Virus record (IMG/VR): IMGVR_UViG_3300017761_003320
Location: 64,001 to 128,000 of that record
Direction: 5' to 3' (one strand)
Length of the DNA: 64,000 bases
Source of the DNA: a virus
Shown: piece after piece, positions 7,719 to 56,566 of the stretch
Numbering within the stretch: position 1 is the first letter of the stretch
How the letters are laid out: the number at the start of each line of letters is the position of its first letter
Notes under the pieces: generated by a model
What the model saw: only the letters and a program-made list of their open reading frames with translations
The model's database searches: none
What the model was told of the DNA's origin: nothing
Translations under genes and position numbers: made by a program

Positions 7719-7979
7719 ATGACATATTCTCATGAAATGCTTCGCACCATAGCTCGTTGCATGTTCATAACACCCCTGAATCATATTCATGCCGGTTATG
7801 ATTGGCCTGCAAAGCAGAGAGAATGGGAATCTCTATCAAATAAAGATAGACAGATTTGGTTTGATAAAGTTATAGTTTGGTTGCAAGAATTAGAATCTAA
7901 AATGCCTGATTCTTATGATTTCTATATCAATCATTGGATAGCAGATTTAGATAATAGAAATCATCTTTTTAGTGAATAA
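7719..7979 (+). CDS. Hypothetical protein
   Basis: Open frame filling the gap between tRNA-Tyr and the convergent ATP-grasp gene. Confidence 0.55.
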   Translation: MTYSHEMLRTIARCMFITPLNHIHAGYDWPAKQREWESLSNKDRQIWFDKVIVWLQELESKMPDSYDFYINHWIADLDNRNHLFSE

Positions 7980-8926: not shown

Positions 8927-9804
8927 TTGAACATTCTATCAATATATGATACTATATCTTTGGCATGATTTGATCCAAAATAATGGTCTCTACCAGAAAA
9001 CCCACCAGGAGAATTTACTTCACATATTACATATCCATTTGAGGATTTTAGAATATCAATTTTTGCTATTTCAATATTTAATGCATTTACTGCATCAATT
9101 ATAATAGTTTTCAATTTATCATTGATTTTATATTGTTCTCGTATACCATCATCTCTATTATTTGATATAAAAAAATCAACATTAGATTTAGGATATCTAA
9201 TTTGCGCTGCGATTGGTATTCTACCAATAACCCATGCTACTATGGTTGGCCCAGTGATTAATTCTTGTACCATAACTTTTTTTTGATATGGAAAGCGTAT
9301 TTGTATTTTTTTGCAATGTATGTAGATATCATCCAAGGTTTTACATAAGGCTACAAGTTCACCCCTTTGCGATAATATTGGTTTAATCACTACTGGTAGA
9401 TGTAGATTTTCTAAAACCATATCATCAAAAGGTATATCTATTGTGAGTGTTTTTGGTATTCTAACATTAGATTTATTTAAAATTTCTAATTGTTTCAATT
9501 TATTAGCACACATCAAATGTGCATCAATATTATTGATGCATTTAATTTTTAGTAATTTTAGCTTATTGATAAAATCGATACTGCTGCCATTGGTAGTTCT
9601 TATTAATACAATATCTGGTAAATTTTTTGGTATAGTTAGATTTGGATTTACTATTGAGGCATCAAACCCTAAAAATCTAAATTCATCAAGCAATCTTATA
9701 TTTTCATATTGACCACCTGGAACACCTTCAGATATTAAGGTATCACGATTAATTAGTTTTTCATCAATTGGTGCTTCTGATGTTAATATCCAAGCTTTCG
9801 CCAT
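8923..9804 (-). CDS. ATP-grasp ligase, RimK/LysX-like
   Basis: NK...RIPKT, LPVVIKP, MVQELI and KIDIL...ICEVNSPGGF motifs. Confidence 0.85.
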   Translation of the reverse strand: MAKAWILTSEAPIDEKLINRDTLISEGVPGGQYENIRLLDEFRFLGFDASIVNPNLTIPKNLPDIVLIRTTNGSSIDFINKLKLLKIKCINNIDAHLMCANKLKQLEILNKSNVRIPKTLTIDIPFDDMVLENLHLPVVIKPILSQRGELVALCKTLDDIYIHCKKIQIRFPYQKKVMVQELITGPTIVAWVIGRIPIAAQIRYPKSNVDFFISNNRDDGIREQYKINDKLKTIIIDAVNALNIEIAKIDILKSSNGYVICEVNSPGGFSGRDHYFGSNHAKDIVSYIDRMFK

Positions 9805-9807
9805 AAA

Positions 9808-10257
9808 TTAATTACACCAGCTTGTTTTGGCCTCACCAAAATATTCGCGCGCCAGACCTTCTGCGATTAATGAAGAACGCAGAGAGCGATTATCAATCAT
9901 TATATCACCAAGAACTCGGCCGCCATATTTGTCCCAATCCATAAGCATCACTTGTACACTAGATGCAGATGCGATTGCATTTTTGGTAAAATCTGTGGCT
10001 CGCTGCCCCATGATTGCTTCTTGCGGACATTGGGCGCGATGACCTTTTTCAGGAGTATCAACCCCATAGACCCTGACCGATATGCGTTGTGCAATCGGAG
10101 CAGGAATCCATGGAGCTTCAAATTGAACAGTATCCCCATCGACGACCCGGATCACTTTCCACGTATATGCTATGGCTTCTGGTGTTCTACCTAAAGCTGC
10201 AATAGCATAGATTAAAGTGGCCGCAAGAACGGCGATGAAAAATCCTGCTCTAATCAT
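9808..10257 (-). CDS. Thermonuclease (SNase family) with signal/anchor
   Basis: RVVDGDT, VRVYGVDTPE, DKYGGRVLG and EGLAREY motifs. Confidence 0.9.
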   Translation of the reverse strand: MIRAGFFIAVLAATLIYAIAALGRTPEAIAYTWKVIRVVDGDTVQFEAPWIPAPIAQRISVRVYGVDTPEKGHRAQCPQEAIMGQRATDFTKNAIASASSVQVMLMDWDKYGGRVLGDIMIDNRSLRSSLIAEGLAREYFGEAKTSWCN

Positions 10258-21480: not shown

Positions 21481-22299
21481 ATGTCATTTTTTTATGATGG
21501 ATGTCGTAATGAAGCAAGGCTTAGTGTAATAGCTGGGCCTTGCATATTTGAATCGAAAGAACATGCGCTTGATATGGCAGGTTCGTTAAAAGAAATATGT
21601 GCCTCACTTGATGTAAATTTTATCTACAAGACATCTTTTGATAAGGCTAATCGCACTAGCAGTCTATCTTATCGAGGTGTAGGATTTGATGAAGCCTATT
21701 ACGGTATGAATGCAGTTAGAGAGGTTCTTGGTATCGAAGTTCTCACCGATGTTCATGAAGCATGGCAATGTGGATCTGTAGCAGCCGATATATTACAGAT
21801 TCCCGCATTTTTATGTCGGCAGACTGATCTTCTTAAAGCTGCGGCTGAGACTGGTAAGCCTGTAAATGTGAAGAAAGGTCAGTTTCTATCTCCGAAAGAG
21901 ATGGTTAATATTGTCGCAAAGCTGGAATCATTTGGTTGCAATAAGGTAATGCAGACTGAGCGTGGCACAACATTTGGTTATAATAATCTTGTGGTTGATA
22001 TGAGAAGCCTAGAGCTTATGCGTGCTAATACTCCTGCTAATTATCCTGTCATAATGGATTGCACTCATGCAGTGCAATCGCCAGGTGGATATGATACATC
22101 ATCCGGTGGTGATCGTGACATGGTACCTGCGATTGCTCGTGCGGCCGTGGCTGTTGGTGTAGCTGGTGTGTTCATGGAAGTTCATCAGGATCCTGATAAT
22201 GCTCCATGCGATGGTCCTAATATGCTTCACTTAGCCAAATTTCGCCCTGTACTTGAGAAGCTACTTGAGATAGACTATGTTGTGAAGAAAGGAGCTTGA
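21481..22299 (+). CDS. kdsA: KDO-8-phosphate synthase
   Basis: IAGPC, SFDKANRTS, QIPAFLCRQTDL, NVKKGQF, ERGTTFGYNNLVVD and DCTHAVQ motifs. Confidence 0.96.
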   Translation: MSFFYDGCRNEARLSVIAGPCIFESKEHALDMAGSLKEICASLDVNFIYKTSFDKANRTSSLSYRGVGFDEAYYGMNAVREVLGIEVLTDVHEAWQCGSVAADILQIPAFLCRQTDLLKAAAETGKPVNVKKGQFLSPKEMVNIVAKLESFGCNKVMQTERGTTFGYNNLVVDMRSLELMRANTPANYPVIMDCTHAVQSPGGYDTSSGGDRDMVPAIARAAVAVGVAGVFMEVHQDPDNAPCDGPNMLHLAKFRPVLEKLLEIDYVVKKGA

Positions 22300-22301
22300 A
22301 T

Positions 22302-22679
22302 ATGAAACTAGGTAAAATTTGGGGTGATACTGAAGATTTGTTTACCAGCCCTAATGTAGAGGTGCATCGCATCAATACAAAGGCAGGCTTTCGGTGTTCA
22401 CTTCATAGTCATCAACATCGTTGGAATGGATTCTATGTGATTAGTGGTATCATTGAAATCCACACTGAAAAGCAATATGGTTTGACAGATGTGACTGTGC
22501 TGCGGCCGGGCGATTTCACTGCGGTGCCACCAAATGAGGTGCATTGTTTTGTATGCACGCAAGATGCTCAGGCGCTTGAAATCTATTGGCCGCAGCATAT
22601 GGAATCGATTGATATTGTGCGTAAAGATGTTGGTGGAATGATTCAAGGTCTCATTAAGGTACCAGATGATGCAGCCTGA
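22302..22679 (+). CDS. Cupin-domain protein (sugar isomerase-like)
   Basis: KIWG, CSLHSH...N.FYVISG and PPNEVH cupin motifs; AAGGAG RBS before 22302. Confidence 0.75.
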   Translation: MKLGKIWGDTEDLFTSPNVEVHRINTKAGFRCSLHSHQHRWNGFYVISGIIEIHTEKQYGLTDVTVLRPGDFTAVPPNEVHCFVCTQDAQALEIYWPQHMESIDIVRKDVGGMIQGLIKVPDDAA

Positions 22680-22908
22680 GTTATCAATTATGTCTCAGGA
22701 TAAATTCATTTCGACAATCGAACGTATCGTTATCGAAAAGAATATGTCATACCTAGATGCTATCATGCATGTATGCGAATCTGTTGGCATTGAAGTTGAG
22801 ATGGTTCCACGTTTGATTACACCTCGCATCAAAAAGATATTGACAAGCGAGGCTAATGAATTGAATTTACTAAAACGTCGTGCTAATGAGCCAAGATTGC
22901 CTATCTAA
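22666..22908 (+). CDS. Late transcription coactivator (T4 gp33-like)
   Basis: IERIV...SYLDAI...EANELNLLK...LPI; synteny with gp59 and gp32. Confidence 0.85.
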   Translation: MMQPELSIMSQDKFISTIERIVIEKNMSYLDAIMHVCESVGIEVEMVPRLITPRIKKILTSEANELNLLKRRANEPRLPI

Positions 22909-23516
22909 TGAAGATTAAAGTTGAAAACATAGTCGATATGGTGCGACCGAAAACTGTAGTGCATGTAGGTGCATCTACTGGTTCTGAGGTTAGACACTAT
23001 CTCGATTCTGGTGTAGAAACATTGCATCTAATCGAGCCTTTGCCTGATGTATGTGAACAGCTTGTTAATACATGGGGCCATCAACATCCGCGAATTATCT
23101 TCTGGCAATGTGCTTGTCTGGATAAAGAGGGTGAAGTTGAATTTCATGTTGCAGCAAATGAAGGTATGTCATCTAGCATATATGGCAAACCTAATCTTGA
23201 TATGCATAACTGCGAATTTATTGATAAGATCACTGTACCTGCATGTCAACTTGATGATTTGGGTTATATCGCAAGCCTTGAAGTCGACTTGCTTGTGGTT
23301 GATGCACAAGGTAGCGAAGATCGAGTATTTGCTGGCGCTACAAAGACATTAGCCAATACAAAATATGTGTTTACCGAAGCTAGTAGAATTCCTTTGTATG
23401 AGGGGGCTTGCACTTTTCAAGATATTTGCACAATTTTGTCAGATAGATTCGATCTGGTTGAAACCTATTTCAATGAAAGAGGAACGGGAGACGCCCTGTT
23501 TAAATGGAAGGAATGA
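22908..23516 (+). CDS. FkbM-family methyltransferase
   Basis: VHVGASTG, IEP, SSS and LLVVDAQGSE motifs. Confidence 0.85.
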   Translation: MKIKVENIVDMVRPKTVVHVGASTGSEVRHYLDSGVETLHLIEPLPDVCEQLVNTWGHQHPRIIFWQCACLDKEGEVEFHVAANEGMSSSIYGKPNLDMHNCEFIDKITVPACQLDDLGYIASLEVDLLVVDAQGSEDRVFAGATKTLANTKYVFTEASRIPLYEGACTFQDICTILSDRFDLVETYFNERGTGDALFKWKE

Positions 23517-42760: not shown

Positions 42761-45700
42761 ATGGCGTCTATTGCTAATACCGTCACGATTTCGACAAACC
42801 TTAATGTCGATCCGTATTATGATGATTTTGATGAATCAAAGAATTTTCATAGAATTTTATTTCGTCCTGGTCTAGCTGTTCAGGCGCGTGAACTTACTCA
42901 AGTTCAATCTATTTTACAAAATCAGATTGATAGATTTGCTGAGCATATTTTTAAAGAAGGTAGCGTTATTCGTGGATGTCAAACCCTTCTTGATAAAGAT
43001 GTATTGTTTATTAAATTAAGAGATAGAGCATCGAATGGAACAACCACGGTCAATGTATATTCATTTTTAAATAAAACTATCACGGGTGTAACTTCAGGAG
43101 TATCTGCTAGCGTTATTAAAGTTAATGACGGGTCAGAAGCAAATACACCAAACTATAAAACACTTTTTGTTAAATTGACGGGCGCCAATGGCCCTATTCG
43201 TATGTTTTCAAATGGCGAAATTATCAATTCAACAAGTGGTGGATTTACTGCTAATTTAATTAGCTCTGGGGCTACTGGATTTTCGGCCCTGATGAAAATA
43301 TCATCAGGTGTAATCTTTGCAAAAGACCATTTTGTTCGTACAGATGACGATCTTTTAGTTTTATCGAAATATTCATCTAATACATCTGGGAGAATTGGTT
43401 TTAATGTAATAGAATCTATTGTTAAAGAATCTGATGATTCTACATTGTTGGACCCTGCATCAGGTTCATATAACTATGCCGCGCCAGGCGCAGCAAGATT
43501 AAAATTATCTGCTAGATTTGTTACAATTGGTTTGAATGAAACTGCAAGTAATAATTTTATAGAACTTGTTCAGTTAAAAGATGGTGTAATTCAATCACAA
43601 TCAGATACTCCACAATATGGTCTATTGCGTGATTATTTTGCAAAACGCACTTATGATGAATCAGGTAATTATGTAGTAAAGGGCCTAAATCCTAGACTTC
43701 GCGAACATTTATTAAGCGCGAATAACCAAGGGGTATATACTTCTGGTGAAGGTGGAGATTCAGCAAAACTTGTCGTAGAACTTACTCCAGGTAAAGCCTA
43801 TGTGCAAGGTTATGATATTGAAACTTTACAGAGTGCTAGAGTAGCGATTGATAAAGCAAATGATTATGCTTCAGTATCATCGGCTTCTACCATTATCGAT
43901 TATGGTAATTATGTCATAGTTGACAATATTGTTGGTAATTGGGGTGTAAATTCGCAAGCTTTAGTAAGTCTGCGGGCCCAGCAAGCTAATGCCGTATCCA
44001 CATTATCATATTCAACAACATCATTACCGTCAACACAAATTGGTACAGCTCGGGTTCGTTCTTTAGAACATTATAGTGGCACTCCGGGGTTACCTTCAGC
44101 TCAGTATAAGCTATATCTGACTGATATTAATATGAATTCCGGATTTGGCTTTACAAATGTACAATCCATAGGATATGATGGTGGTGCAGGCACTGCACTT
44201 GGTAAGGCTGATATACTTGGTTCTAATGGTCTTAATGCTAATACCTCAGAATCAGCATTTGATAGGGCCGTTTTTAGATTACCTGCAAAATATATTAGGC
44301 GTCTGAGAAGTACTTCAGGTACAGTAGTATCTGATTTTAGATTTAAGAAATCATTTGATATTACTTTTGGTACTGCAGGTACTGCAACGGTTACAACAGG
44401 TTTAGCTAGCGAAACGTTCTCAGGATCAGGTGCATTATCTGCATCTCTTGGAAGAGCAAATTATTATGTGGTTGCGCGAGGGTCGGGTAATACCGGTGCA
44501 ATTGGCACACTGCGGTTAAGCACAACAAGTGGATCCAATACAATAACGCGTTCAAATAGCTCCATTGATTTGACCACACGTATTAGTCCAGGCGAATTGA
44601 TTCGTGTTGCAAATACCGGTGATTTCATTGTAACATCTGTATCTGCATCATCTTTGACGACTCTTTCTACAGCAAGCGCAACCAGAACAGGTATGAGGGT
44701 TCACAAGCTAATTAAGCAAGGTCAAATTTTAGATTTTGGCGGAAGCGGTGGTCTTGCTGGCACAGCTCGTAGCATAACTGTATCATCATCTACTCAAACT
44801 GATTTTGATCTTAAAGAAACTCTTGGTTCATCTATCAATGCTACTGTGATAGCAGAGTTAAACAAAGTTGATGGACAAGAAGCATCTAAGACAGTTAACC
44901 GTAACCGACTGGTTCAAATTAGAGTTGGGTCTGGTGGTGGTACATCATATGTGGCCAATACTACAGGGCCCTGGCCTCTTGGATTATCAGATGGTTTTAA
45001 ATTATTATCTGTACGCAAAAAGTCCGGGTCTAATTTTGCCAGTCTGACTGAAGGTACTGACGTAACAAATAGCTTTGTGCTTGATTCAGGTATGAATGAT
45101 AGCTATTACAGTCATGCACAATTAGTTAAAAAGCCTGGTGCTGGGATTAGCATATCTTCTGGTGATAGATTGCTTGTAAAGCTTGATTATTTTATACATA
45201 GCTATTCAACTGGTGTAGGATATTTTTCTGTAGATTCTTATCCTGTGAGTGATGCAACTGCAGGAACAGATACCACAAAAATTTATACATATGATATACC
45301 AAGATTTACATCACAACGTACAGGTATCCTTTACGATCTTAGAGATTGTATTGATATACGTCCAAGAATGACGGATACTGCAAACACGGTTACCTCGCTT
45401 TCAAATATATCAATAAATCCAAAACTATCAACATCCTTTGATCAACCGTCCGGTGGTCTGCGATTTATGTCAACTGGTGATACATTTACTACGGATCTTG
45501 ATTACTATCTGTATAGAAATGATAGAATAGTTTTGGATCGTAAAGGTATATTTTCTCTAGTAAGAGGCGTTCCATCCAATAATCCGACAACACCGGATGA
45601 ACCATTGGATTCCATGTCTATTGCTACTATAAATTTAACTCCATATCCATCTCTGCCTGATGAACAAGCACGTAGAGTCGGAAGAACAGATCTTGCATCT

Positions 45701-48700
45701 AAAGTATTTCCTATTAAGAACCCTAGATTTACTATGAAAGATATTGGTGTTCTTAGAGATAGAATTGAAAATCTTGAATATTATACAACTCTAAATTTAT
45801 TAGAGATGGATACCAAAAATCTATTGATTCAAGATGAAACTGGTAATAATAGATTCAAGAATGGTATTTTGGTCGATCCATTCTACGGCCATAATGTTGG
45901 AGATGTTACTAATTCTGATTATAAGATTTCTGTAGATTCAGCTAAGGGTGAAGCACGTCCACCGTTTAAGCTAGACAATTTTGAATTATTCTATAATTCT
46001 GCTAATTCATCAAATGTGGTTCGTACGAATACGACTACAGGTGGTGTGGCTAGAGATCAGATAGTATTCATTTCAAATAGTGCCGCTGCATTTGCGAATG
46101 GTCAGACTGTAACCGCAGGTGGTGCATCTGGTACATTAAGATTTAAAGTCAATAACAAACTGTATATTGAAAATGCTACTGCAAATTTCTCTACAGGAGC
46201 TACGGCAACAAGTGGAGCTGTATCATCTACAATTTCTGGTGTATATGCAATTCCACCTGGAAATCTTATAACTCTACCATATACACATGAAGTTTTTGTT
46301 CGCCAGCCATTTTCTTCTACTACAAAAAATGCAGCAGGTTTATTTTGGAAATGGAATGGTAGAGTATTTTTAAATCCTGATAGTGATTATTGGACAGATA
46401 CTGTCCAATTACCTGATGTAAATGTCAATGTTGATAATTTTGATGATAATTGGGCGCAAAGCGGGGCCTGGGGTACTTCTTGGAATAATTGGCAAACCGT
46501 TTGGCAATCATCATCGGATGCAGTTGTAAATAATACAACAGTATCAACTCAAGGTGATGCTACAATAGCAACAACAACAAGTACCACTACAACTACAACG
46601 ACATCTGGTCAAGTTAGAGAAGGTATTCAGTATTCACTAACTCCAGTAACAACTACAACTAATTATGGCCCAAGAGTCATATCAACAAACATACAACCGT
46701 TTATGCGGTCTAGACCTATTAGATTTACCGCAACAGAAGTTAAGCCTGGTGCAAGATTATATGCATTTTTTGATGGCACACCAGTATCAGAATATGTAAC
46801 TCCAACCAATTCATCCTTTGCAAATACTGCTAGAGAAGGTGGTCCGCTTTTTTCGGCTGCTAATGGAAATGTTTATGGTATATTCAGAATTCCTGCTGAT
46901 GAAAGATTAAGATTTAGAACTGGTACATTAAGATTCCGTTTGTCAGATTCACAGACAAATGATATATCAGCAGGATCATCTTTGACTTCAGCAGAAGGTT
47001 CATATTCATCGCAGGGATTGACACAACAAACTCAATCTACCATAGTATCAACTACCAATCCACAAGTTGTTATGACGGCCGTATCTGAAAGTCAAACTGC
47101 AATTACTAATGCAGTATCAACAACAACTACTTCAGTTAGTGCATCAGTTACTCAAAATATTACAAATGTAATTAATGTTACTCAAGTTGTACAGCAACCA
47201 GCCCAAGAAGATCCAATAGCGCAATCATTCACTGTTAATACTCTTGCGGTAGGTAAAGTAAATGGTTCTGGTGCATTTGCTACAAAAGTTGATCTTTTCT
47301 TTGCATCTAAATCCACAACACTTGGATGTGAAGTCCATCTAAGAGAAATTGATACATTATCAAATACTATAACACCCAGGGTAGTTCCATTCAGTACAGT
47401 ATTTTTGCAACCAGCAGAAATAAATGTAAGTGATAATGCTTCTGCGCCAACACCAGTATATTTTAGCGCACCTGTATATTTACAAAATGGTAGAGATTAT
47501 GCAATAATAATAAAACCAGTAGGTAATAATCCAGATATAACTTTGCATATCTCTCGTTTAGGTGAAGTTGATAAATTAACAGGTAATAGAATAACTTCTC
47601 AACCAGCCGCTGGTATGCTATTTGCTTCAGCAAATGACAAAGTTTATACAGCGATTCAAGAAGAAGATTTGAAATTTACACTTTATGTTGCAAACTTCCA
47701 AAATTCATCGGTAGGTTCTGTAGTATTTAAAAATGAATTACGTGATTATTTGGAAATTGCAAATGCATCAGCAGCTTTTATTCGAGCTGGTGAATTAGTT
47801 CACGGTGAGACAATTCTTGTTGGAACATTTGCTAACACAAAACATGTAAATACCGGAGTTACTTATGTTCAAGGTATGACTTCGGGTGCTACTGGAACCA
47901 TATCACGGTTTAGCACATCACAATTACGGGTTCGTAATGTATCATTGACTTCAAAATTTAGAGGTGGTGAAACTATTCGCATTCGCAATACAAATGCAAC
48001 AACAGGTGTCATAGTTGGTAATTCGACTGGGGGTATCACCTCAGCAACAACACCAACTGGTCGCGTAGCATATTTTGATGCGGTATCATTTGCGAATACC
48101 TATTTGCATCTGGCAAATGTGGCCTATACAAATAGTGGCGCAGCTTCTGGTTCAGGTAGAGTTTTCTTTGCTAATAACTGGATTCGCGGTCAAGTTAATG
48201 GAGCGATAGCTCGCATAGTTAAACTTGATCGTCTTCAGGCCGATGTATTAAATATATCTACTGATTTCTTGACACCAACAAATACCGCGATAATTGTATC
48301 TGGTAAATTTGCCACAAGCAATAGCAGTAGAGATACCTCATATATCAATCTTGATGTAAATAATAATAATGAATTTGCATCACCTAGATATGTGCTTAGC
48401 CGTAGTATGGAATCTAATACTTCGATTAGTGGTACTTCAATGGGTGCAGATAGATCAGCAGAAATTAAGACCTCATTGATTAGCTTGAATAGATATGCAT
48501 CACCAGTTCTTGATGTTCAACGCATTTCTGCTATCATAGTGGAGAATTTGATTAATAATGATACAACTGGTGAGGCCAATACCGCAAGTGGTGGTAATGC
48601 TTTAGCAAAATATATTACTAGAAAAATGACACTTGCTGATGGTCAAGATGCGGAAGATATTAGAGTTTATCTGACTGCTTATCGTCCACCTGGATCAAAT

Positions 48701-49066
48701 GTAAGTGTATATTACAAAATTCTACACAAAGAAGATAGTGATACATTTGCTAATGCTAGATGGATTCCAATGGATCCTTCTTCGGAAGCAGGATTTACAT
48801 CATCTACCACATATTCTAGCTCAGAATTGAAAGATGATTTTAGAGAATATGTATTTGTCCCACCTGTTTATGTTGAATCTGGTGGAGAGTCTGCTTATAA
48901 ATCGGGAACAAATCCAAGCAATAGTGATATAATTGAATATAAAAATTCAACTGGCGCTAAATTTGTTGGTTATAAGTATCTGTCAATCAAGGTCATTTTA
49001 ACAAGCACGTCAACAACAAATCCACCAAGATTAGATGATGTTAGAGTGATTGCATTACAGAGATGA
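42761..49066 (+). CDS. Very large virion structural/fibre protein (DUF4815/VrlC-like)
   Basis: NLNVDPYYDDFD, ILFRPG..VQARELT, RTYDESGNY, RIENLEYYT, RFKNG and DPIAQSF motifs. Confidence 0.8.
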   Translation: MASIANTVTISTNLNVDPYYDDFDESKNFHRILFRPGLAVQARELTQVQSILQNQIDRFAEHIFKEGSVIRGCQTLLDKDVLFIKLRDRASNGTTTVNVYSFLNKTITGVTSGVSASVIKVNDGSEANTPNYKTLFVKLTGANGPIRMFSNGEIINSTSGGFTANLISSGATGFSALMKISSGVIFAKDHFVRTDDDLLVLSKYSSNTSGRIGFNVIESIVKESDDSTLLDPASGSYNYAAPGAARLKLSARFVTIGLNETASNNFIELVQLKDGVIQSQSDTPQYGLLRDYFAKRTYDESGNYVVKGLNPRLREHLLSANNQGVYTSGEGGDSAKLVVELTPGKAYVQGYDIETLQSARVAIDKANDYASVSSASTIIDYGNYVIVDNIVGNWGVNSQALVSLRAQQANAVSTLSYSTTSLPSTQIGTARVRSLEHYSGTPGLPSAQYKLYLTDINMNSGFGFTNVQSIGYDGGAGTALGKADILGSNGLNANTSESAFDRAVFRLPAKYIRRLRSTSGTVVSDFRFKKSFDITFGTAGTATVTTGLASETFSGSGALSASLGRANYYVVARGSGNTGAIGTLRLSTTSGSNTITRSNSSIDLTTRISPGELIRVANTGDFIVTSVSASSLTTLSTASATRTGMRVHKLIKQGQILDFGGSGGLAGTARSITVSSSTQTDFDLKETLGSSINATVIAELNKVDGQEASKTVNRNRLVQIRVGSGGGTSYVANTTGPWPLGLSDGFKLLSVRKKSGSNFASLTEGTDVTNSFVLDSGMNDSYYSHAQLVKKPGAGISISSGDRLLVKLDYFIHSYSTGVGYFSVDSYPVSDATAGTDTTKIYTYDIPRFTSQRTGILYDLRDCIDIRPRMTDTANTVTSLSNISINPKLSTSFDQPSGGLRFMSTGDTFTTDLDYYLYRNDRIVLDRKGIFSLVRGVPSNNPTTPDEPLDSMSIATINLTPYPSLPDEQARRVGRTDLASKVFPIKNPRFTMKDIGVLRDRIENLEYYTTLNLLEMDTKNLLIQDETGNNRFKNGILVDPFYGHNVGDVTNSDYKISVDSAKGEARPPFKLDNFELFYNSANSSNVVRTNTTTGGVARDQIVFISNSAAAFANGQTVTAGGASGTLRFKVNNKLYIENATANFSTGATATSGAVSSTISGVYAIPPGNLITLPYTHEVFVRQPFSSTTKNAAGLFWKWNGRVFLNPDSDYWTDTVQLPDVNVNVDNFDDNWAQSGAWGTSWNNWQTVWQSSSDAVVNNTTVSTQGDATIATTTSTTTTTTTSGQVREGIQYSLTPVTTTTNYGPRVISTNIQPFMRSRPIRFTATEVKPGARLYAFFDGTPVSEYVTPTNSSFANTAREGGPLFSAANGNVYGIFRIPADERLRFRTGTLRFRLSDSQTNDISAGSSLTSAEGSYSSQGLTQQTQSTIVSTTNPQVVMTAVSESQTAITNAVSTTTTSVSASVTQNITNVINVTQVVQQPAQEDPIAQSFTVNTLAVGKVNGSGAFATKVDLFFASKSTTLGCEVHLREIDTLSNTITPRVVPFSTVFLQPAEINVSDNASAPTPVYFSAPVYLQNGRDYAIIIKPVGNNPDITLHISRLGEVDKLTGNRITSQPAAGMLFASANDKVYTAIQEEDLKFTLYVANFQNSSVGSVVFKNELRDYLEIANASAAFIRAGELVHGETILVGTFANTKHVNTGVTYVQGMTSGATGTISRFSTSQLRVRNVSLTSKFRGGETIRIRNTNATTGVIVGNSTGGITSATTPTGRVAYFDAVSFANTYLHLANVAYTNSGAASGSGRVFFANNWIRGQVNGAIARIVKLDRLQADVLNISTDFLTPTNTAIIVSGKFATSNSSRDTSYINLDVNNNNEFASPRYVLSRSMESNTSISGTSMGADRSAEIKTSLISLNRYASPVLDVQRISAIIVENLINNDTTGEANTASGGNALAKYITRKMTLADGQDAEDIRVYLTAYRPPGSNVSVYYKILHKEDSDTFANARWIPMDPSSEAGFTSSTTYSSSELKDDFREYVFVPPVYVESGGESAYKSGTNPSNSDIIEYKNSTGAKFVGYKYLSIKVILTSTSTTNPPRLDDVRVIALQR

Positions 49067-49293: not shown

Positions 49294-49884
49294 ATGGCTA
49301 AAATTGCAAATGTCGCATTAACTAATACGTTTGATACCTGGAGGATTCGATCTAACCAGGCATTTAATCGTTTAAGTCAATTTGCGATTGATGAATCAAA
49401 ACTTTATGCTAATACACTAACTGCTAACGTGCAGTTTGTATCTTTAGGTGCAACAAAGCTAGGTTCAAGTGCCACTACAAGAATTATAGCTAATGGTCTA
49501 TTATCAACTAACGGCAATTTTACTGTATCAGGTAACTCAGTTATAGGCGCGGCCACTAAGCGTACTGTGATAAATGGAACGGTAACGGCTAACGGCAATT
49601 TAACAATAACTGGTAATACTACGATCGGTGATGCCGCTACTGATAGATTAACTTTAAATAGTAATACTGTTTCAATTGGTGCGGCCGTATTAAATATTGA
49701 TACTGGACTTCTATTTTTACAGAAAAATTCAAATAGAGTAGGTATTAATACACTACGCCCAAATACGGCTTTTCATGTGAATGGTGTGGTCTTGGCAAAT
49801 AGTGGATTCAAATATCCAGACGGAGCTTTAACAACTGCGCCACTATATGTGTATGATGATACCGGCTCTCAGTTGTATCCATAA
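49294..49884 (+). CDS. Tail fibre/adaptor protein
   Basis: NTFDTWR N-terminus; GNxTVxG beta repeats; RVGINT..P...FHVNG. Confidence 0.65.
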   Translation: MAKIANVALTNTFDTWRIRSNQAFNRLSQFAIDESKLYANTLTANVQFVSLGATKLGSSATTRIIANGLLSTNGNFTVSGNSVIGAATKRTVINGTVTANGNLTITGNTTIGDAATDRLTLNSNTVSIGAAVLNIDTGLLFLQKNSNRVGINTLRPNTAFHVNGVVLANSGFKYPDGALTTAPLYVYDDTGSQLYP

Positions 49885-49893
49885 GGTAATACG

Positions 49894-51153
49894 ATGGCAA
49901 ATCCTTTAAAGGTCAAAAAAACAGGCGCTACATTTAACGGCCTGCAGCTTATGACAAATGCAGAGATGAATTATACTGTCGATGTTGTTCTTAAATTATT
50001 TGCCAATACAAATTCAGGTCTTGGTACTGTAAATATTGATGGTGCTACTGGTACATCAATTGGTACATTTGTTGATACTTCTAGATCAGGTTCTGTTGGT
50101 GATCACCCAGTTGCAGATTCACCTACAACAGTAACCACATATACATTTAAGCAAGATGTTACAACTGCTGCAACAGAAGTTATAACAAGGCCGATTGAAC
50201 ATTCATCTAGCGGTATTAGACAACAAAATGATACACAGCTAAATGCATCAATCATCACACGAGCCTTAGCTAACTGTGCAGCATCTGGTATAGGTTCATA
50301 TGCATTACAACCTAGTGCTCCAGTTGGAACTTGGACATCAGTCGGCACCATAACAAATAGTGTTATCGGTGCAACCAATACATCAACCTTGTGGAGAAAA
50401 ACTGGTGGTACTGCCCCAACCGCGGTAAGACCATTAAAATATCAAACTAGTCCGTCAAAATCTTTCAAAGAAATGACGGATGTTGAAATACAAGGTCTTA
50501 CTAATAGATTTCGTAATCAGATCATATCTACTGGTATTTGCACTTACAAATTACAAACATCAGCTCCATCACCAGGCACATGGACTACAACCGGTGCGGC
50601 CTTTGATGATACTAGAAATACACTAGCATCTGCGAACTATACCGGATCATATACTGGTTCATATGGAGCCACTTATAGTGGATCCTTTGCAGGATCTTAT
50701 GCAGCCACTTATAGTAGATCCTTTGCAGGATCTTATGCAGCCACTTATAGTAGATCCTTTGCAGGTTCTTATTCCGGTAGCTATTCCGGTACATATTCTG
50801 GTCCTTATTCAGGATCTTATACAAGAAATAGATCACAAAATTTTCAAACATTTTTTACTGGATTTGGTGGTACGATTTTTACTGGATTCTTTACAGGATT
50901 TTATACAGGGTTCTATACAGGATTTTATACAGGATCTTATACAGGATCTTATACTGGTAGCTATACTGGGAATTTTGCTGGTACATATACTGGTAACTAT
51001 ACTGGGAATTTTGCTGGTACATATGCTGGTAACTATACTGGGAATTTTGCTGGTACATATGCAGGATCATATGCCGGATCATATGCTGGAACAACTATTC
51101 AAGCAAGTTCAGCTACCATTTCAACAGTCAGCCTTTGGGTGAGGACCGCATAA
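49894..51153 (+). CDS. Fibre-like protein with (Y/F)xGx tetrapeptide repeats
   Basis: 38 four-residue units at 50638-51093; Thr/Ser/Gly-rich. Confidence 0.7.
   Translation: MANPLKVKKTGATFNGLQLMTNAEMNYTVDVVLKLFANTNSGLGTVNIDGATGTSIGTFVDTSRSGSVGDHPVADSPTTVTTYTFKQDVTTAATEVITRPIEHSSSGIRQQNDTQLNASIITRALANCAASGIGSYALQPSAPVGTWTSVGTITNSVIGATNTSTLWRKTGGTAPTAVRPLKYQTSPSKSFKEMTDVEIQGLTNRFRNQIISTGICTYKLQTSAPSPGTWTTTGAAFDDTRNTLASANYTGSYTGSYGATYSGSFAGSYAATYSRSFAGSYAATYSRSFAGSYSGSYSGTYSGPYSGSYTRNRSQNFQTFFTGFGGTIFTGFFTGFYTGFYTGFYTGSYTGSYTGSYTGNFAGTYTGNYTGNFAGTYAGNYTGNFAGTYAGSYAGSYAGTTIQASSATISTVSLWVRTA
50638..51093 (+). repeat. 12-bp periodic repeat array with two 36-bp x3 sub-arrays
   Basis: GCCACTTATAGT(A/G)GATCCTTTGCAGGATCTTATGCA x3 from 50668; TATACTGGGAATTTTGCTGGTACATAT... 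x3 from 50962. Confidence 0.9.
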
Positions 51154-51618
51154 ATGTCTGATAGACAAATTTTGGAACCATATTGGGCATCCAATTTAAA
51201 AAATCAAATAGTATGTAAATTTAAATATGCTGATGGGCGAGAAGTTGTGGCATCCGTATCGCAAACGGATGAAGGTAATCCTGATTGGGATGAAATAATT
51301 CAGAAATTTACTATGGAAGAAATTGATGCCAATACGGCCGCAGGTGTTCAAAGACATGAAGAAAATCGTTTAAAACGTCAGATGGAGCAGCAACGTCAAG
51401 CCGATAATTTTAGACGTGAAGCTTTGTTTATGGCTAAGAGTGATGCATTTGAAGTTGATTTGGTAAGAACTTCTACAAATACTGAGTTAAAATCAAAACT
51501 TAGAAAAGCGGCCTCTATTATGGAAGTTACTTTACTTGCATCTATGATTGCGCTAGATAATTACAACATGCAAAAGGTGACAGTCGATGCCGAAACGTCG
51601 TCAGCAAACACAGCTTGA
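51154..51618 (+). CDS. Hypothetical protein (possible fibre chaperone)
   Basis: Directly abuts the fibre gene; helical C-half. Confidence 0.65.
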   Translation: MSDRQILEPYWASNLKNQIVCKFKYADGREVVASVSQTDEGNPDWDEIIQKFTMEEIDANTAAGVQRHEENRLKRQMEQQRQADNFRREALFMAKSDAFEVDLVRTSTNTELKSKLRKAASIMEVTLLASMIALDNYNMQKVTVDAETSSANTA

Positions 51619-52345
51619 GCCTAGCAAAGGCTATCTTCTTGTAGCATCATATTCAAAAGCTTATTATGATGCTGCAATAAGATGCGCGATATCTATTCGT
51701 GACCATCATCCTGATGCTAGAATAGTTCTGTTTACCCATGCAGATTTTATTAAGGATTCCGATAGATATCTATTTGAAGATGTCATAACTGGTATTCCGT
51801 ATCATATGCGCGCAAAATTATGGGCCCTTGATAAGACTCCATTTGATATAACTCTATATCTAGATTGCGATACTGAAATATGGCATAATGATATTTCTAA
51901 TATATTTGACCTATTAGGTGATAGTGATATCGCAATAACTAATATTCGAGAATATGCTGGAAAAGGCACTAATGTAAGTAAGACTGAAAAAATGACACAT
52001 CACTGTGGTGTATTTCTTTATAGAAAAAATACAACCATTAGCTTTATGCAAAAATGGTGGTGTGATTATTTGATTCAAACAACACGTGGTCCATGGCCAT
52101 ATCCCGAATATGAATCTAATATGAAACCTTGGGATCAATTTACTTTTTGGCGGTTGTTGAAAGAAGAATTTAAAAATATTAAAGTATCAATCTTGCCAGA
52201 TGATGCTAGATGGAATTTCATACATCTGTATCTAGATAGTGAGACCGATAAGCCAATAGTGGTCTGGCACTATACAATACCCAGAGGAATCGTAGATGCA
52301 AACTCTATCAAAGATACATCCTATTCTCCAGAAAATTTTAGATGA
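51587..52345 (+). CDS. Glycosyltransferase, GT-A
   Basis: KLWALDKTPFDITLYLDCD (DxD), CGVFLY and WDQFTFW motifs. Confidence 0.8.
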   Translation: MPKRRQQTQLEPSKGYLLVASYSKAYYDAAIRCAISIRDHHPDARIVLFTHADFIKDSDRYLFEDVITGIPYHMRAKLWALDKTPFDITLYLDCDTEIWHNDISNIFDLLGDSDIAITNIREYAGKGTNVSKTEKMTHHCGVFLYRKNTTISFMQKWWCDYLIQTTRGPWPYPEYESNMKPWDQFTFWRLLKEEFKNIKVSILPDDARWNFIHLYLDSETDKPIVVWHYTIPRGIVDANSIKDTSYSPENFR

Positions 52346-52940
52346 CTTTTCTGATTGGTTTTTCCAACAAGATTTGTCACAATTAAAAATACAAAGACGA
52401 GATGATTTTAAGAAAAATCTATCTTACATAGAATGCACTAATAGAGAATATCTGGAGTCGGCCTTACCGACTCCGGAGAGATTTGGTTTTCCTAGAGACT
52501 GTTATGGTATTGATATGATCATACACCATTCGAAGGAAAGAGAGTTTTTTCCGACTTATTTTGATCCAGTGCTTAGAAAACTAGATGATGATCTAATGAC
52601 ATTTCTTGGCGCTAGAAATAATGCATTAAAGATGTATTATCCACCAGAAGGTTTTATAGGATGGCATAATAATGGAAATGCACATGGTTACAATATAGTA
52701 ATAACATATAGCAAAACTGGTGATGGTGCATTTTATTCATATGATTTGAAAACCAAAGAAATCATAGAATACAAAGATAAGCCAGGTTGGAATATAAAGG
52801 TTGGATATTTTGGTAAATTTTCAGAACCTGATACTGTATTTTGGCATTCGGCTAGAACCGATTGTGATAGATTGACATTAAGCTATATCATATATGATAA
52901 AAATATTTGGGATAATATGATCGAAGATATTCAATCATGA
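52296..52940 (+). CDS. 2OG-Fe(II) oxygenase-like (DSBH) protein
   Basis: YYPPEGFIGWHNN...FWH...R.TLSY; HxN in place of HxD. Confidence 0.6.
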   Translation: MQTLSKIHPILQKILDDFSDWFFQQDLSQLKIQRRDDFKKNLSYIECTNREYLESALPTPERFGFPRDCYGIDMIIHHSKEREFFPTYFDPVLRKLDDDLMTFLGARNNALKMYYPPEGFIGWHNNGNAHGYNIVITYSKTGDGAFYSYDLKTKEIIEYKDKPGWNIKVGYFGKFSEPDTVFWHSARTDCDRLTLSYIIYDKNIWDNMIEDIQS

Positions 52941-53582
52941 TTTGGTTAACATTTGAATAACTTCTGCATCTGACATCTTTAGACTAAACACAGAATCAAC
53001 TAATGAAGTTCTATTGAAAATCCATTTCATATCCAAAATATCATAACCATCTGGATATTCAAATGTAATAAATTCATCATTACCAAAATATTTGATCATA
53101 TATTCTTCACTGGCCGATATGAATTTTTCATATAGATCATGATGATTACCACCAGTCCACATCATGATTGATGAATTTAATATGGTAAAATACATACCCA
53201 AAGTCTTTTTTCGTAAATGAGTATTTACTAAACTTTTATGCGTGATTTTAGATGGGTTTTGTCCTATGATTAGCTTGTCACCAAATTGTAGCATTTCATC
53301 TATAGGCTTTAAAAGCTTCGAATCTAGATCAAAAAATATACATTTTGCACCATCTTCACATAATCCTGGCTTAAATAATAGAAGCTTGAACCACCAACCT
53401 TCCAAATCATGATCACGCACATCTATCGGAATAATATCTGTGCCTATAAATTCGTCGGGGTCATCGGTTAGGCAATAGTGTTTGAATGGTGAACCGAGAT
53501 AAATCTTACTTGATTCATTAATGGCCATAACATATTTTTTGTTATATTTTGGCTTTACTAATATGGAGTATAGATGATACAT
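52935..53582 (-). CDS. Glycosyltransferase-like protein, GT-A
   Basis: KY...YV, HYCLTDD, WWFKLLLF, FFDLD, NSSIMMW and GNDEFI motifs; start at CAT 53580-53582 with GAGG RBS. Confidence 0.75.
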   Translation of the reverse strand: MYHLYSILVKPKYNKKYVMAINESSKIYLGSPFKHYCLTDDPDEFIGTDIIPIDVRDHDLEGWWFKLLLFKPGLCEDGAKCIFFDLDSKLLKPIDEMLQFGDKLIIGQNPSKITHKSLVNTHLRKKTLGMYFTILNSSIMMWTGGNHHDLYEKFISASEEYMIKYFGNDEFITFEYPDGYDILDMKWIFNRTSLVDSVFSLKMSDAEVIQMLTKS

Positions 53583-54315
53583 GTCGACCTCTATAAAATT
53601 CATATGCTATAAGTGGGGAAAGAAATACCCAAGTATATATGTTAACAGATTATATAATATGGTAAAAGCACATTACAATGGCAGCTTTTCTTTTCACTGT
53701 ATAACTGATGATATTTCAAATATTAGAAATGAAATTATAACACACGACATTAATAAAATTGCATCATTTCGTAAAGATATAGGATCAATTTTTACAATAG
53801 AAAAATTAAGTTCATTTAAACCTGGTTTTTTGGATGGAGGTCGATTTGTTTTACTAGACCTTGATATCATAATACATGGTAATTTAACAGAATATTTGAA
53901 TGGGTGTTTTACAGAATTTAGATTGATCAAAAATTATTGGCAACCTGATTATGCAGATATAACCCATTATGGCGGTAATTACTGTTCAATAAATTCATCA
54001 TTCGTTACATGGAAAGATGATCAAGCATCACACATATATGATTTTTATATGAAAAATCTCAATAAGATTTCTCGGGTTTACAATAGTTTTGATAGATCAT
54101 TATATTATCTTCAAGATGGGCAATATGCATTTCATTCAAAAGGAATAGTATATTCTTATAATGGAGGGGCCCACTATCCTGATGATAGGTCCGTAGGATT
54201 ATATAGAGATTCTTATAAAATTTGCATATTTAATAATTCTCATGGTTATGGTATGGATATTAACAATACAAAAAATTGGGCATTAAGCATGTGGAAAAAA
54301 TATGATACCTTATAA
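53581..54315 (+). CDS. Glycosyltransferase-like protein, GT-A (paralog of the divergent neighbour)
   Basis: CYKWGKKYPSIYVNRLYNMV, FHCITDD, LLDLDII and INSSFVTW motifs. Confidence 0.8.
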   Translation: MSTSIKFICYKWGKKYPSIYVNRLYNMVKAHYNGSFSFHCITDDISNIRNEIITHDINKIASFRKDIGSIFTIEKLSSFKPGFLDGGRFVLLDLDIIIHGNLTEYLNGCFTEFRLIKNYWQPDYADITHYGGNYCSINSSFVTWKDDQASHIYDFYMKNLNKISRVYNSFDRSLYYLQDGQYAFHSKGIVYSYNGGAHYPDDRSVGLYRDSYKICIFNNSHGYGMDINNTKNWALSMWKKYDTL

Positions 54316-54940
54316 AGATATGAAAGAAAAAATTTCATCCAAATATAATAAGTTAATAAGAACGTCAGAATGGCCAATATCTCATGTATTAAATGATAGC
54401 ATAGATCCTTATTATTCTAGTATAGAATATGAAATTGTCGAATCTTTGATACCGCATATTGAAAATGGTTCTAAAATTGCCATATTAGGTTCTTGGTTTG
54501 GTATAACTTTTTTAGAAACATTTTCTTTAATAAATCACAAAATAGATACGATAAAGCTATTTGATTATGACCCAACGGTTGAAATAATTGGTAAAAAAAT
54601 ATCCAATATGGTAGATATTGATGTCAAATATCTAAGAAAAAATGTAATTTTTGATGATATAACAAAAGATATAGATGGGTTTAATATCTTCATAATACCC
54701 TATATTCATATGCTATTACCTTTTGATGATATTATTCCAAATGCACCTAAAAATAATTTGATTTCATTGTCTGGTTCAAATGATGCATTTTTAATGAGAT
54801 ATGGAAATCCTATATTCAATGTAGATGATCTAAAGCAACAAACAACATTTTCCGATGAATTGTATATCTCAGAAAAAGAAATGAAATTTCTGGATAGGAG
54901 ATTAAGTTTTAAAAAATCGATTTTAACGGCAAGAATCTAA
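54302..54940 (+). CDS. Class I SAM methyltransferase-like protein
   Basis: KIAILGSWFG motif I followed by LFDYD acidic strand. Confidence 0.55.
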   Translation: MIPYKDMKEKISSKYNKLIRTSEWPISHVLNDSIDPYYSSIEYEIVESLIPHIENGSKIAILGSWFGITFLETFSLINHKIDTIKLFDYDPTVEIIGKKISNMVDIDVKYLRKNVIFDDITKDIDGFNIFIIPYIHMLLPFDDIIPNAPKNNLISLSGSNDAFLMRYGNPIFNVDDLKQQTTFSDELYISEKEMKFLDRRLSFKKSILTARI

Positions 54941-54998
54941 ATAGGCCGTGATCTAGCTATAATATGAATGAAAACATTATAGCTGGAGGATGCCTATT

Positions 54999-55268
54999 AT
55001 GGCTGAAAATAAAGAAGAACCCGCAGCGCAGACACCTGCTCTTACACAAGAGCAAACCACGCTGTCAATGGCACATTCATTTTTTGTTACAAAAATATCG
55101 ATTATATCTCTTGCATCAATCATGGTATCTGTGGTTGGTGTTTTGTTAATTAGCATTTTTCATCCAGATGTTGATAATAACAAAATTTTTGAAATTCTCG
55201 GACCTGCATTTCAAACTGTAGTCGGTTGTTTTGTTGGAATGGTATCTGCGAATTTCATAAGGAAATAA
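54999..55268 (+). CDS. Small two-TM membrane protein
   Basis: GGAGG RBS; two hydrophobic helices around VDNNKIFEILGPAFQTVVG. Confidence 0.6.
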   Translation: MAENKEEPAAQTPALTQEQTTLSMAHSFFVTKISIISLASIMVSVVGVLLISIFHPDVDNNKIFEILGPAFQTVVGCFVGMVSANFIRK

Positions 55269-55272
55269 TATT

Positions 55273-55788
55273 ATGGACCAGCTCCTTAATATAGTCAAGA
55301 CGGTTGCACCAACTATCGCAACTGCGATGGGTGGACCTCTTGCAGGTATGGCAGTTCGCACCTTATCCGAGACATTGCTTGGTAAGCCTGACGGTACGCA
55401 AGAGGAGCTGGCCGCGGCGGCAGCGGCTGCAACACCAGATCAATTACTTGCGCTAAAAAATGCTGAAAATAATTTTAAGCTTGAAATGAAAAAGCTTGAT
55501 GTCGATTTAGAGCGTATTAGCGCAGGTGATCGTGATAGTGCTCGTCATATGGCAATGCAAAATCCAAGAGATTGGACACCAAGGGCTTTGGCAGGTGTTA
55601 TTACAATTGGTTTCTTTGGTGTATTAATGTATATGTTGATGTTTGGTCTACCTGCTGCCGGTGGTGGTGAGGCAATGTTGGTTATGCTAGGTACCCTAGG
55701 CACAGCATGGGGTGCTGTAGTATCATTCTATTTTGGTTCATCGGCAGGCTCAAGAGCAAAAGATGAAGCTTCGGCTGGAAAGAAGTAA
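55273..55788 (+). CDS. Holin-like (3TM/glycine-zipper) membrane protein
   Basis: APTIATAMGGPLAG, DRDSAR, two TM helices and FYFGSS. Confidence 0.65.
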   Translation: MDQLLNIVKTVAPTIATAMGGPLAGMAVRTLSETLLGKPDGTQEELAAAAAAATPDQLLALKNAENNFKLEMKKLDVDLERISAGDRDSARHMAMQNPRDWTPRALAGVITIGFFGVLMYMLMFGLPAAGGGEAMLVMLGTLGTAWGAVVSFYFGSSAGSRAKDEASAGKK

Positions 55789-55822: not shown

Positions 55823-56566
55823 ATGGCTGTACCAACTACTCGCAAGCTGTTCAAAGATTATTGTCTTAGACGGCTAGGTTATCCTGTCATTGATATCAAC
55901 GTTGATGATGGTCAAGTTGATGACCGCATCGATGATGCGCTTGCATATTATCGAGATTTTCATTTTGATGGTACAGAACACATCTATCTTTCATATAAGA
56001 TTACACAGACGGATGTGAATAACAAATTTATCACGCTTCCTGATAATATCAATTATGTCATTCGTATTTTTGATATTGGTCGTGCATCTAGCGTATCAAA
56101 TCTATTCAATGTGCGATATCAAATTCATCTGAATGACTTGTTTGACTTTACAAGTACAACTTATGTTCCATATGTTATGGGTATGCGTCATATTGAGGAG
56201 CTTGAACAGATATTTGTTGGTAGCAAACCAATTCGATTTAATCGTCATAACAACTGTTTATATGTTGATATGAAATGGGACAAAGATGTTAAGGTTGATG
56301 ATTATGTAATTGTCGATTGCTATCGTGTACTTGATTCTGAGGCCTTCAGCGATGTCTGGTCAGATCCGTGGTTAAAGAAATATGCATCAGCTCTTATCAA
56401 AAAGCAATGGGGCGAAAACCTAAAGAAGTTTGAAGGTATGAACCTTCCTGGTGGGGTAAAATTCAACGGCCAAAAAATTTGGGATGAAGCTAATGATGAA
56501 ATCAATGCTCTTGAAAAAGAAATGAATAGTGGCTATAGCTTACCCGTCATGGATATGATGAATTGA
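55823..56566 (+). CDS. Neck protein (T4 gp13-like)
   Basis: YCLRRLGYPVIDINVDD and KKQWGENLKKFEG..LPGGV motifs. Confidence 0.95.
   Translation: MAVPTTRKLFKDYCLRRLGYPVIDINVDDGQVDDRIDDALAYYRDFHFDGTEHIYLSYKITQTDVNNKFITLPDNINYVIRIFDIGRASSVSNLFNVRYQIHLNDLFDFTSTTYVPYVMGMRHIEELEQIFVGSKPIRFNRHNNCLYVDMKWDKDVKVDDYVIVDCYRVLDSEAFSDVWSDPWLKKYASALIKKQWGENLKKFEGMNLPGGVKFNGQKIWDEANDEINALEKEMNSGYSLPVMDMMN

Follow-up and report, generated by a model that had tools for sequence, protein, structure and literature searches.

We describe a cassette of seven genes (49894-54940) in a 64,000-nucleotide stretch of DNA from an uncultured T4-like water phage, hereafter the window, which corresponds to bases 64001-128000 of a 155,201 bp IMG/VR record with direct terminal repeats (IMGVR_UViG_3300017761_003320). 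Its core is a set of four consecutive genes that encode a protein with a long Tyr/Gly-rich repeat (the repeat fibre), a 154-residue protein, a glycosyltransferase-like protein (GT1), and a protein with the fold of prolyl hydroxylases (the oxygenase-like protein). The four genes are strictly linked in both directions among related phages, and the fibre repeats form two arms of equal length. The explanation we favour, tentatively and with a little less than even confidence, is that the module covalently decorates the phage's own hairpin fibre through a core transferase, a variant oxygenase-type enzyme, and a set of fast-changing accessory enzymes. All seven genes are present, inside the structural module, where a preliminary description made from the letters of the window had placed them.

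Linkage of a repeat fibre gene to three downstream genes

The core features are as follows.

49894..51153, + strand: repeat fibre of 419 aa, with an N-domain (residues 1-240), repeat arms (242-398), and a conserved C-terminal tail
51154..51618, + strand: 154-aa protein without an assigned fold, between the fibre and GT1, its start abutting the fibre stop
51587..52345, + strand: GT1, a DxD glycosyltransferase-like protein with an invariant DxD and weak profile matches, nearest to GT8 (glycogenin) and Nucleotid_trans
52296..52940, + strand: double-stranded beta-helix (DSBH) protein of the prolyl-hydroxylase type, with an H124-x-N126...H184...R192 site

The 154-aa and GT1 genes share 32 nt, and the GT1 and oxygenase-like genes 50 nt, confirming that the four frames abut or overlap on one strand, as had been proposed. 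Using the GT1 profile, we fetched 80 loci from the at least 482 GT1 relatives in IMG/VR; together with those collected earlier there are 88 GT1-bearing loci and 50 non-identical GT1 proteins, and the counts given here are for loci whose flanking DNA is long enough. In 48 of 48 of these the gene directly downstream of GT1 is the oxygenase-like gene; the 154-aa gene lies directly upstream of GT1 in 45 of 45, and a fibre homolog upstream in 40 of 40. Starting instead from the fibre, with a profile of its N-domain and non-identical loci having at least 2.5 kb of downstream sequence, all of the 154-aa gene, GT1, and the oxygenase-like gene are found behind the last fibre gene at every locus (42/42). 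Co-occurrence of the fibre and the core enzymes, which had been set beforehand as a refuting test, is therefore complete both ways and does not refute the proposal. The four-gene block is kept down to about 30% identity (phage C48C1 and locus L012), with differing flanking genes.

Among 50,697 phage records searched by tblastn, the fibre and GT1 each match C48C1 alone, where the gene order is the same, and neither matches any cyanophage record. Ahead of gp13, the neck protein gene that closes the island downstream, Synechococcus phage S-CAM3 carries a large virion structural gene in the corresponding position. Since GT1 and the fibre are missing from the cyanophage records, it is to the repeat fibre specifically that the linkage applies.

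Fibre residues 242-398 comprise about 40 tetrapeptide units of the form [Y/F]-[T/S/A]-G-[S/T/N/F], and these approximately 157 residues agree well with the 150 or so first reported. The composition of residues 239-412 is 24% Tyr plus Phe, 18% Gly, and 33% Ser plus Thr, with no Lys, and the repeats, which are encoded by 12- and 36-bp tandem repeats, are nearly free of Pro and Lys. The N-domain common to the relatives carries two SAP-x-G-T-W motifs with invariant prolines, and the proteins close with a conserved tail (...V-S-T-V-S-L-W-V-R-T-A); the region between is highly variable in length. A 159-aa open frame (50663-51142, + strand) runs in another reading frame within the fibre repeat, and is most likely a by-product of the repeat and no gene.

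The variable repeat regions share a simple symmetry. Of 35 distinct repeat regions, with lengths of 53-297 residues, 27 have a turn-like motif (an aromatic doublet and then Gly) no more than three residues from their exact midpoint, where 5.1 are expected by chance; in the window fibre it is at position 78 of 157 (about residue 320). The turn was located as the site nearest the midpoint and compared with the chance expectation, an earlier approach using the median of aromatic doublets having failed. The two arms therefore lengthen and shorten in step, and an antiparallel hairpin stalk, its two ends together at the base, is implied. This equal-arm architecture is new here, and offers a simple and testable structural model of the fibre. 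Length differs even between near-identical phages, with 419 aa in the window and 355 aa in the closest relative, whose N-domain is 93% identical, which suggests paired gain and loss of 12- and 36-bp repeats on both arms (window 50617-51087; relatives L003-L171). The C48C1 counterpart is a repeat protein of 3347 aa.

Putative activities of the core proteins

The GT1 family has invariant residues at D93-x-D95, H139, and H228 across 29 sequences with identities down to 30%. Searched against the PDB, the GT1 profile has glycogenin (GT8) chains for all of its best matches (E 0.02), with the DxD aligned to that of glycogenin. There is no Pfam match to the window protein itself, and weak Pfam matches among the 29 relatives are to Glycos_transf_2 (14), Nucleotid_trans (5, best E 3e-7), and GT8 (3). 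Glycogenin glucosylates its own tyrosine.

The oxygenase-like protein is modelled by AlphaFold2 as a double-stranded beta helix with a pLDDT of 94. Its best fold matches are PHD2, Pseudomonas P4H, PiuC, Dictyostelium PHD, and the chlorovirus collagen prolyl hydroxylase (Z 9.5-11.1); VIA gives a Z of 11.1 for PHD2 (root-mean-square deviation 3.6 A, 146 residues aligned) and 10.2 for PiuC, and Foldseek an E of 1e-5 with probability 1.0. A profile search of the PDB with the family gave no meaningful sequence match. An exhaustive profile search (E <= 0.001) recovered 886 clusters at 50% identity, and among the best 150 cluster representatives every one has the Asn of the H-x-N motif (150/150), while the distal His is conserved in 144/144 and the Arg in 143/144. 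This Arg, R192, lies in an R-x-T/S motif on the last DSBH strand of the model (strand VIII), and from its position would be the basic residue that binds the C5 carboxylate of 2-oxoglutarate (2OG). Such strong conservation of the His/Asn/His site with its Arg suggests a site under strong selection and no decayed enzyme, yet one without the canonical carboxylate. No canonical 2OG oxygenase was found in the same genome.

The 154-aa protein has no relatives in Pfam, PHROGs, or the PDB by profile search, and none was detected outside this phage group. Its earlier description as a possible chaperone was a guess from position, which these searches do nothing to substantiate.

An alternative that these data allow us to weigh is that the 154-aa protein, GT1, and the oxygenase-like protein are assembly factors that leave no stable glycan, or that they act on another target such as the 2101-aa protein encoded at the upstream border of the island. 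Fibre chaperone genes adjoin fibre genes in T4, the variant H-x-N site might bind and not oxidise its ligand, and the 2101-aa protein (42761-49066) has poly-Thr/Ser tracts that are plausible glycosylation sites too. We nevertheless regard this as quite improbable: invariance of its DxD and His residues suggests that GT1 is a genuine transferase, purifying selection on a full 2OG-type site including the Arg suggests a bound cofactor, and S-CAM3 has its large structural gene before gp13, yet the cyanophage records are without GT1.

Accessory genes and the candidate substrate of the module

Three further genes complete the cassette.

52935..53603, - strand: GT2, a GT8-like DxD protein, paralog of GT3
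53581..54315, + strand: GT3, a GT8-like DxD protein (phrog_1962 glycosyltransferase, E 1e-5)
54302..54940, + strand: 212-aa protein with a class I S-adenosylmethionine (SAM) methyltransferase fold by model and Foldseek; GC content 0.26

GT2 and GT3 are paralogs (E 2e-5), as had been recognised, and alignment with GT3 makes the Met at about 53582 the likely true start of GT2. D93 and D95 are invariant in 35 sequences of this family, which has only the DxD region in common with GT1. Matches of the joint GT2/GT3 profile to the PDB are weak but consistent (GT8 structure 3tzt, E 0.002; LgtC, E 0.32), and a tblastn search with GT3 found no match in the phage records. The 212-aa protein is modelled (pLDDT 90) with a seven-stranded Rossmann-type methyltransferase fold, for which Foldseek returns NodS, UbiG, BioC, and TehB (E about 1e-6, TM score 0.6); its Atlas features also lean to methyltransferase families, and a profile search of the PDB with its family gave no meaningful sequence match. 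Motif I is degenerate (I-L-A/G-S-W-x-S/G, with Ser and Trp invariant and no conserved glycines, against GxGxG), and strand 2 is followed by invariant D88 and D90. Scans of the seven cassette proteins against Pfam and PHROG gave almost no matches. The enzyme folds agree with those guessed: the DSBH and class I methyltransferase in the models, and the glycosyltransferases, more weakly, in the DxD motifs and GT8-like profile matches.

These genes are accessory. Copies of the GT2/3 family are present in 33 of 35 loci, with two to four each, and the methyltransferase-like gene was found in 7 of 35, all close relatives (by single-sequence phmmer, which diverged copies could escape); a methyltransferase-like gene belongs to this cassette, as had been claimed, but this search did not find it in most related ones, and its motif I is degenerate. 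GT2/3 paralogs, methyltransferase-type genes, FkbM, and radical SAM/SPASM genes vary between relatives. Among close relatives the island genes are 34-88% identical where gp13 is 99%, the methyltransferase-like gene being the fastest-evolving of the cassette at 34%, and in related loci the enzymes diverge fast against a gp13 at 92-99% identity. GC content falls stepwise (49894-55788) from 0.39 in the fibre gene through GT1 (0.35), the oxygenase-like gene (0.32), and GT3 (0.28) to 0.26 in the methyltransferase-like gene, and then rises sharply to 0.47 in the next conserved gene. The islands of two relatives (L041:12610-14240, L024:12613-13200, and L024:13982-15310) encode radical SAM/SPASM proteins, an FkbM methyltransferase, and GT3-like proteins of about 440-480 aa, one with a weak SPASM-like C-terminal match; a TctA transporter gene is also found in L041 (16689-17957).

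The combination of an oxygenase, glycosyltransferases, and a methyltransferase recalls phage TET-type cassettes, which were reportedly described by Pyle et al. 2024 according to text that cites that work, and raises the question of hypermodification of the phage bases by a TET/JBP-type or T4 hydroxymethylcytosine-like route. AlkB and FTO are among the fold matches of the oxygenase-like protein (Z about 9.5), and the genome has two C5 DNA methyltransferases; these are tandem genes with frames of about 395 aa each (record 148650-150859, beyond the window), some 30 kb from the cassette. The best fold matches of the oxygenase-like protein are protein prolyl hydroxylases, however, and neither TET nor JBP is among the 50 matches listed; a search for TET_JBP (PF12851) gave no match, with control genomes equally silent. 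No thymidylate-synthase-type hydroxymethylase was found in the genome, the 212-aa protein has no DNA-methyltransferase motifs, and the genes lie in the late structural module, coupled to the fibre gene. We consider DNA hypermodification very improbable.

Decoration of the fibre is supported by the strict two-way linkage, kept at low identity and specific to the repeat fibre; by abutting and overlapping frames in the late structural module; by the invariant DxD and His residues of GT1 and DxD of GT2/3, whose nearest solved relatives are GT8 proteins including glycogenin; by the fast divergence of the enzymes against a stable gp13; and by enzymes that all look soluble by inspection, in a cassette with no recognised flippase, polymerase, or lipid-carrier gene. 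A plausible scheme is that the fibre would consist of the N-domain, two Tyr/Gly arms running out and back as an antiparallel hairpin, and the C-terminal tail, so that the hairpin would form a thin stalk of perhaps 26 nm in this phage. The 154-aa protein, GT1, and the 2-His-1-Asn protein would be made by translational coupling to the fibre. In the cytoplasm, late in infection, GT1 would place a sugar from a host nucleotide-sugar on the fibre, the oxygenase-like protein would either prepare the acceptor or alter the sugar, and the GT8-like paralogs and the methyltransferase-fold protein would extend and cap the glycan. With accessory genes swapped fast between phages, glycan structure would differ among near-identical phages.

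Several points weigh against this scheme. It is built from genes, folds, and motifs, and its chemistry is conjectural throughout; the glycosyltransferase assignments of GT1 and GT2/GT3 appear weak by sequence (E 0.002-0.02). The names 'fibre' and 'virion component' are drawn from position and architecture, and homology does not confirm a fibre, the protein having no Pfam or PHROG family and only unnamed viral relatives. All loci come from one broad phage lineage, and shared descent may partly explain the gene order.

The repeat is a further difficulty. Ala stands for Ser/Thr and Phe for Tyr at many repeat positions, and the repeats of one relative are poor in Ser and Thr, such that the regularly spaced hydroxyls pictured earlier show no conservation at individual sites. 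Beta sheets are known to be stabilised by an alternation of Tyr and Gly along one strand face. Since the Ser, Thr, and Tyr positions are individually replaceable, the Tyr/Gly repeat has a purely structural explanation and makes sense without modification.

The oxygenase-like protein carries its own objections, the first being that the iron-binding Asp/Glu of the HxD/E motif is replaced by the invariant Asn (H124-x-N126...H184). Loss of this carboxylate inactivates prolyl hydroxylase, FIH, and TauD, whereas AspH and halogenases are active 2OG enzymes without it, and FIH D201G is also a precedent (PMC10915816). The predicted DSBH oxygenase-type fold is borne out by the model, and the proposed hydroxylation is possible, unproven, and, because the iron-binding carboxylate is absent, doubtful. 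Secondly, C48C1 has three oxygenase-like copies, one behind the fibre and two far from any fibre: the first of these two (L172:18267-18920) follows the major head and gp3-like genes, and the second (L173:5131-5805) has a DnaB-like helicase gene on one side and a NifU-like gene on the other. Taken as a whole, the family is therefore not fibre-specific and has uses beyond the fibre, and its tree does not cleanly separate the fibre-linked copies from the others.

A published interpretation of similar islands also points elsewhere. In the parts of Zaragoza-Solas et al. 2020 (PMC7029224) available to us, a hypervariable host recognition cluster lies between VrlC and the neck genes of pelagimyophages and cyanomyophages, encodes tail fibres and several GT8-type glycosyltransferases, includes radical SAM cassettes in some phages, and is proposed to modify the host O-chain through these glycosyltransferases. 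The island described here, between the 2101-aa gene and gp13, is similarly hypervariable with GT8-like genes, and its relatives carry radical SAM/SPASM and FkbM genes; the invariant four-gene core, the hairpin fibre, and the variant metal site are absent from those same passages. On this model the GT8-like and methyltransferase-like proteins, encoded in a host-interaction island, would alter the host lipopolysaccharide O-chain or another envelope glycan and so block superinfection or keep progeny off debris, and a cyanomyovirus paper argues likewise (PMC12801897). In their low GC and rapid turnover, GT2, GT3, and the methyltransferase-like gene recall O-antigen loci, KdsA is encoded elsewhere in the genome, and heptose and epimerase genes occupy the same place in S-CAM3. 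Host-surface remodelling does not, however, account for why GT1 and the oxygenase-like gene are completely linked in both directions, and translationally coupled, to one particular repeat protein. We recognised no gene in the cassette for a membrane-associated initiating transferase, a flippase, a polymerase, or a lipid carrier, and placement in a late module would presumably give the host surface little time before lysis. We take host remodelling to be a serious, if rather unlikely, explanation.

Decoration of the fibre has counterparts in other systems. Phage glycosyltransferases encoded beside structural genes are reported, by papers citing Freeman et al. 2023, to glycosylate virion proteins of mycobacteriophages. 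The arrangement of genes is alike in the two cases. As those papers relay them, the mycobacteriophage targets are the C-termini of capsid and tail-tube subunits, whereas in this T4-like phage the candidate is a hairpin fibre built of repeats, with an oxygenase-fold protein in the core and a modification that is predicted. In the serine-rich-repeat adhesin islands of Gram-positive cocci and in heptosylation of AIDA-I by Aah, dedicated glycosyltransferases, partly of the GT8 family, modify the protein in the cytoplasm before export or assembly. A hydroxyl-rich repeat fibrous protein encoded beside dedicated glycosyltransferases is common to these and the present cassette; they are bacterial, have Ser-rich and not Tyr/Gly repeats, lack an oxygenase, and show no sequence relationship. 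In chlorovirus PBCV-1, A064R combines glycosyltransferase domains with a methyltransferase domain in capsid glycosylation, and similarly uses viral cytoplasmic GT-A enzymes and a sugar methyltransferase to decorate the virus's own structural protein, but PBCV-1 is a eukaryotic giant virus with N-linked glycans on its major capsid protein, and the enzymes are not homologous.

Hydroxylation followed by glycosylation is known for Skp1 (PhyA with Gnt1, PgtA, and AgtA), collagen (lysyl hydroxylase with glycosyltransferases), extensins (P4H with GT77), and mimivirus L230. The likeness lies in a prolyl-hydroxylase-fold enzyme paired with GT-A transferases on a structural protein, in the presence of the Dictyostelium PHD among the fold matches (6t8m, Z 9.9), and in the invariant prolines of the fibre N-domain SAP motifs. 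The differences are the Asn in place of the iron-binding Asp/Glu and repeats nearly free of Pro and Lys.

Virion glycosylation by phage- or virus-encoded enzymes is established for mycobacteriophages and giant algal viruses, and the literature searched gave us no account of it in T4-like phages. The families concerned are large, with at least 482 relatives of GT1 in IMG/VR and 886 clusters of the oxygenase-like protein, and they are found in phages that infect some of the very abundant bacteria of aquatic habitats. Were the fibre the substrate, GT8 genes of host recognition clusters would have to be read as decorating the virion and not the host, a 2OG-type enzyme with Asn for its carboxylate ligand would gain a defined protein substrate, and variation in fibre length and glycan would be tied to host range. 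A broader proposal, which we advance as speculation and think unlikely in its entirety, is that abundant aquatic T4-like phages, likely including SAR11/LD12-type myophages, build glycan-coated, length-variable Tyr/Gly beta-hairpin 'whiskers' using a glycogenin-like transferase and a previously unrecognised 2-His-1-Asn 2OG-type class, as a phage counterpart of the Skp1, collagen, and extensin pathways in which transferase swapping generates glycan diversity.

Setting of the island and neighbouring genes

The gene content is T4-like, and runs from baseplate wedge genes through the 2101-aa gene and the cassette to gp13, gp14, gp15 (sheath stabiliser), and the large terminase. The flanking features are as follows.

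42761..49066, + strand: 2101-aa conserved virion-region protein, upstream island border (phrog_358, E 0)
49294..49884, + strand: 196-aa fibre-region protein directly upstream of the repeat fibre (phrog_14293, E 2.5e-8)
55823..56566, + strand: neck protein gp13, downstream island border (phrog_211, E 5e-42; blastn matches to cyanophage neck genes)

The nearest named phage is C48C1 (Kyanoviridae, OQ984149), and in a blastn search of phage records the sole region matched was the neck gene, with about 71% DNA identity to those of Synechococcus phages. Most related loci have a homolog of the 2101-aa protein on their upstream side, and by comparison with PMC7029224 this protein is probably the VrlC landmark of the published cluster. 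The 196-aa gene is syntenic in close relatives. Scans for T4-type late promoters (TATAAATA) gave no enrichment and no instance within the cassette, and those for sigma-70 promoters and terminators were at chance level, and so no expression timing can be drawn from them. Between the cassette and gp13, a 171-aa protein (55273-55788; phrog_1544) has a hydrophobic C-terminal half with a weak match to a holin family with three transmembrane segments, and is 99% conserved between phages whose adjoining cassettes differ strongly.

Sugar-related genes elsewhere in the window had also been linked to the cassette. The KdsA, cupin, and FkbM methyltransferase genes (21481-23516) are real, but they lie in the replication region, 27 kb away, and their connection to the cassette is pure conjecture. 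The two supposed glycosyltransferases at 1.3-2.7 kb have no Pfam match, belong to phrog_28018 (annotated as function unknown), and are unrelated to the cassette glycosyltransferase profiles, and so are not confirmed as such. A gene for a TctC/Bug-type binding protein is located at 6109-7062, and two adjoining RimK-like ATP-grasp genes and a staphylococcal-nuclease-like gene are on the minus strand at 7961-10257.

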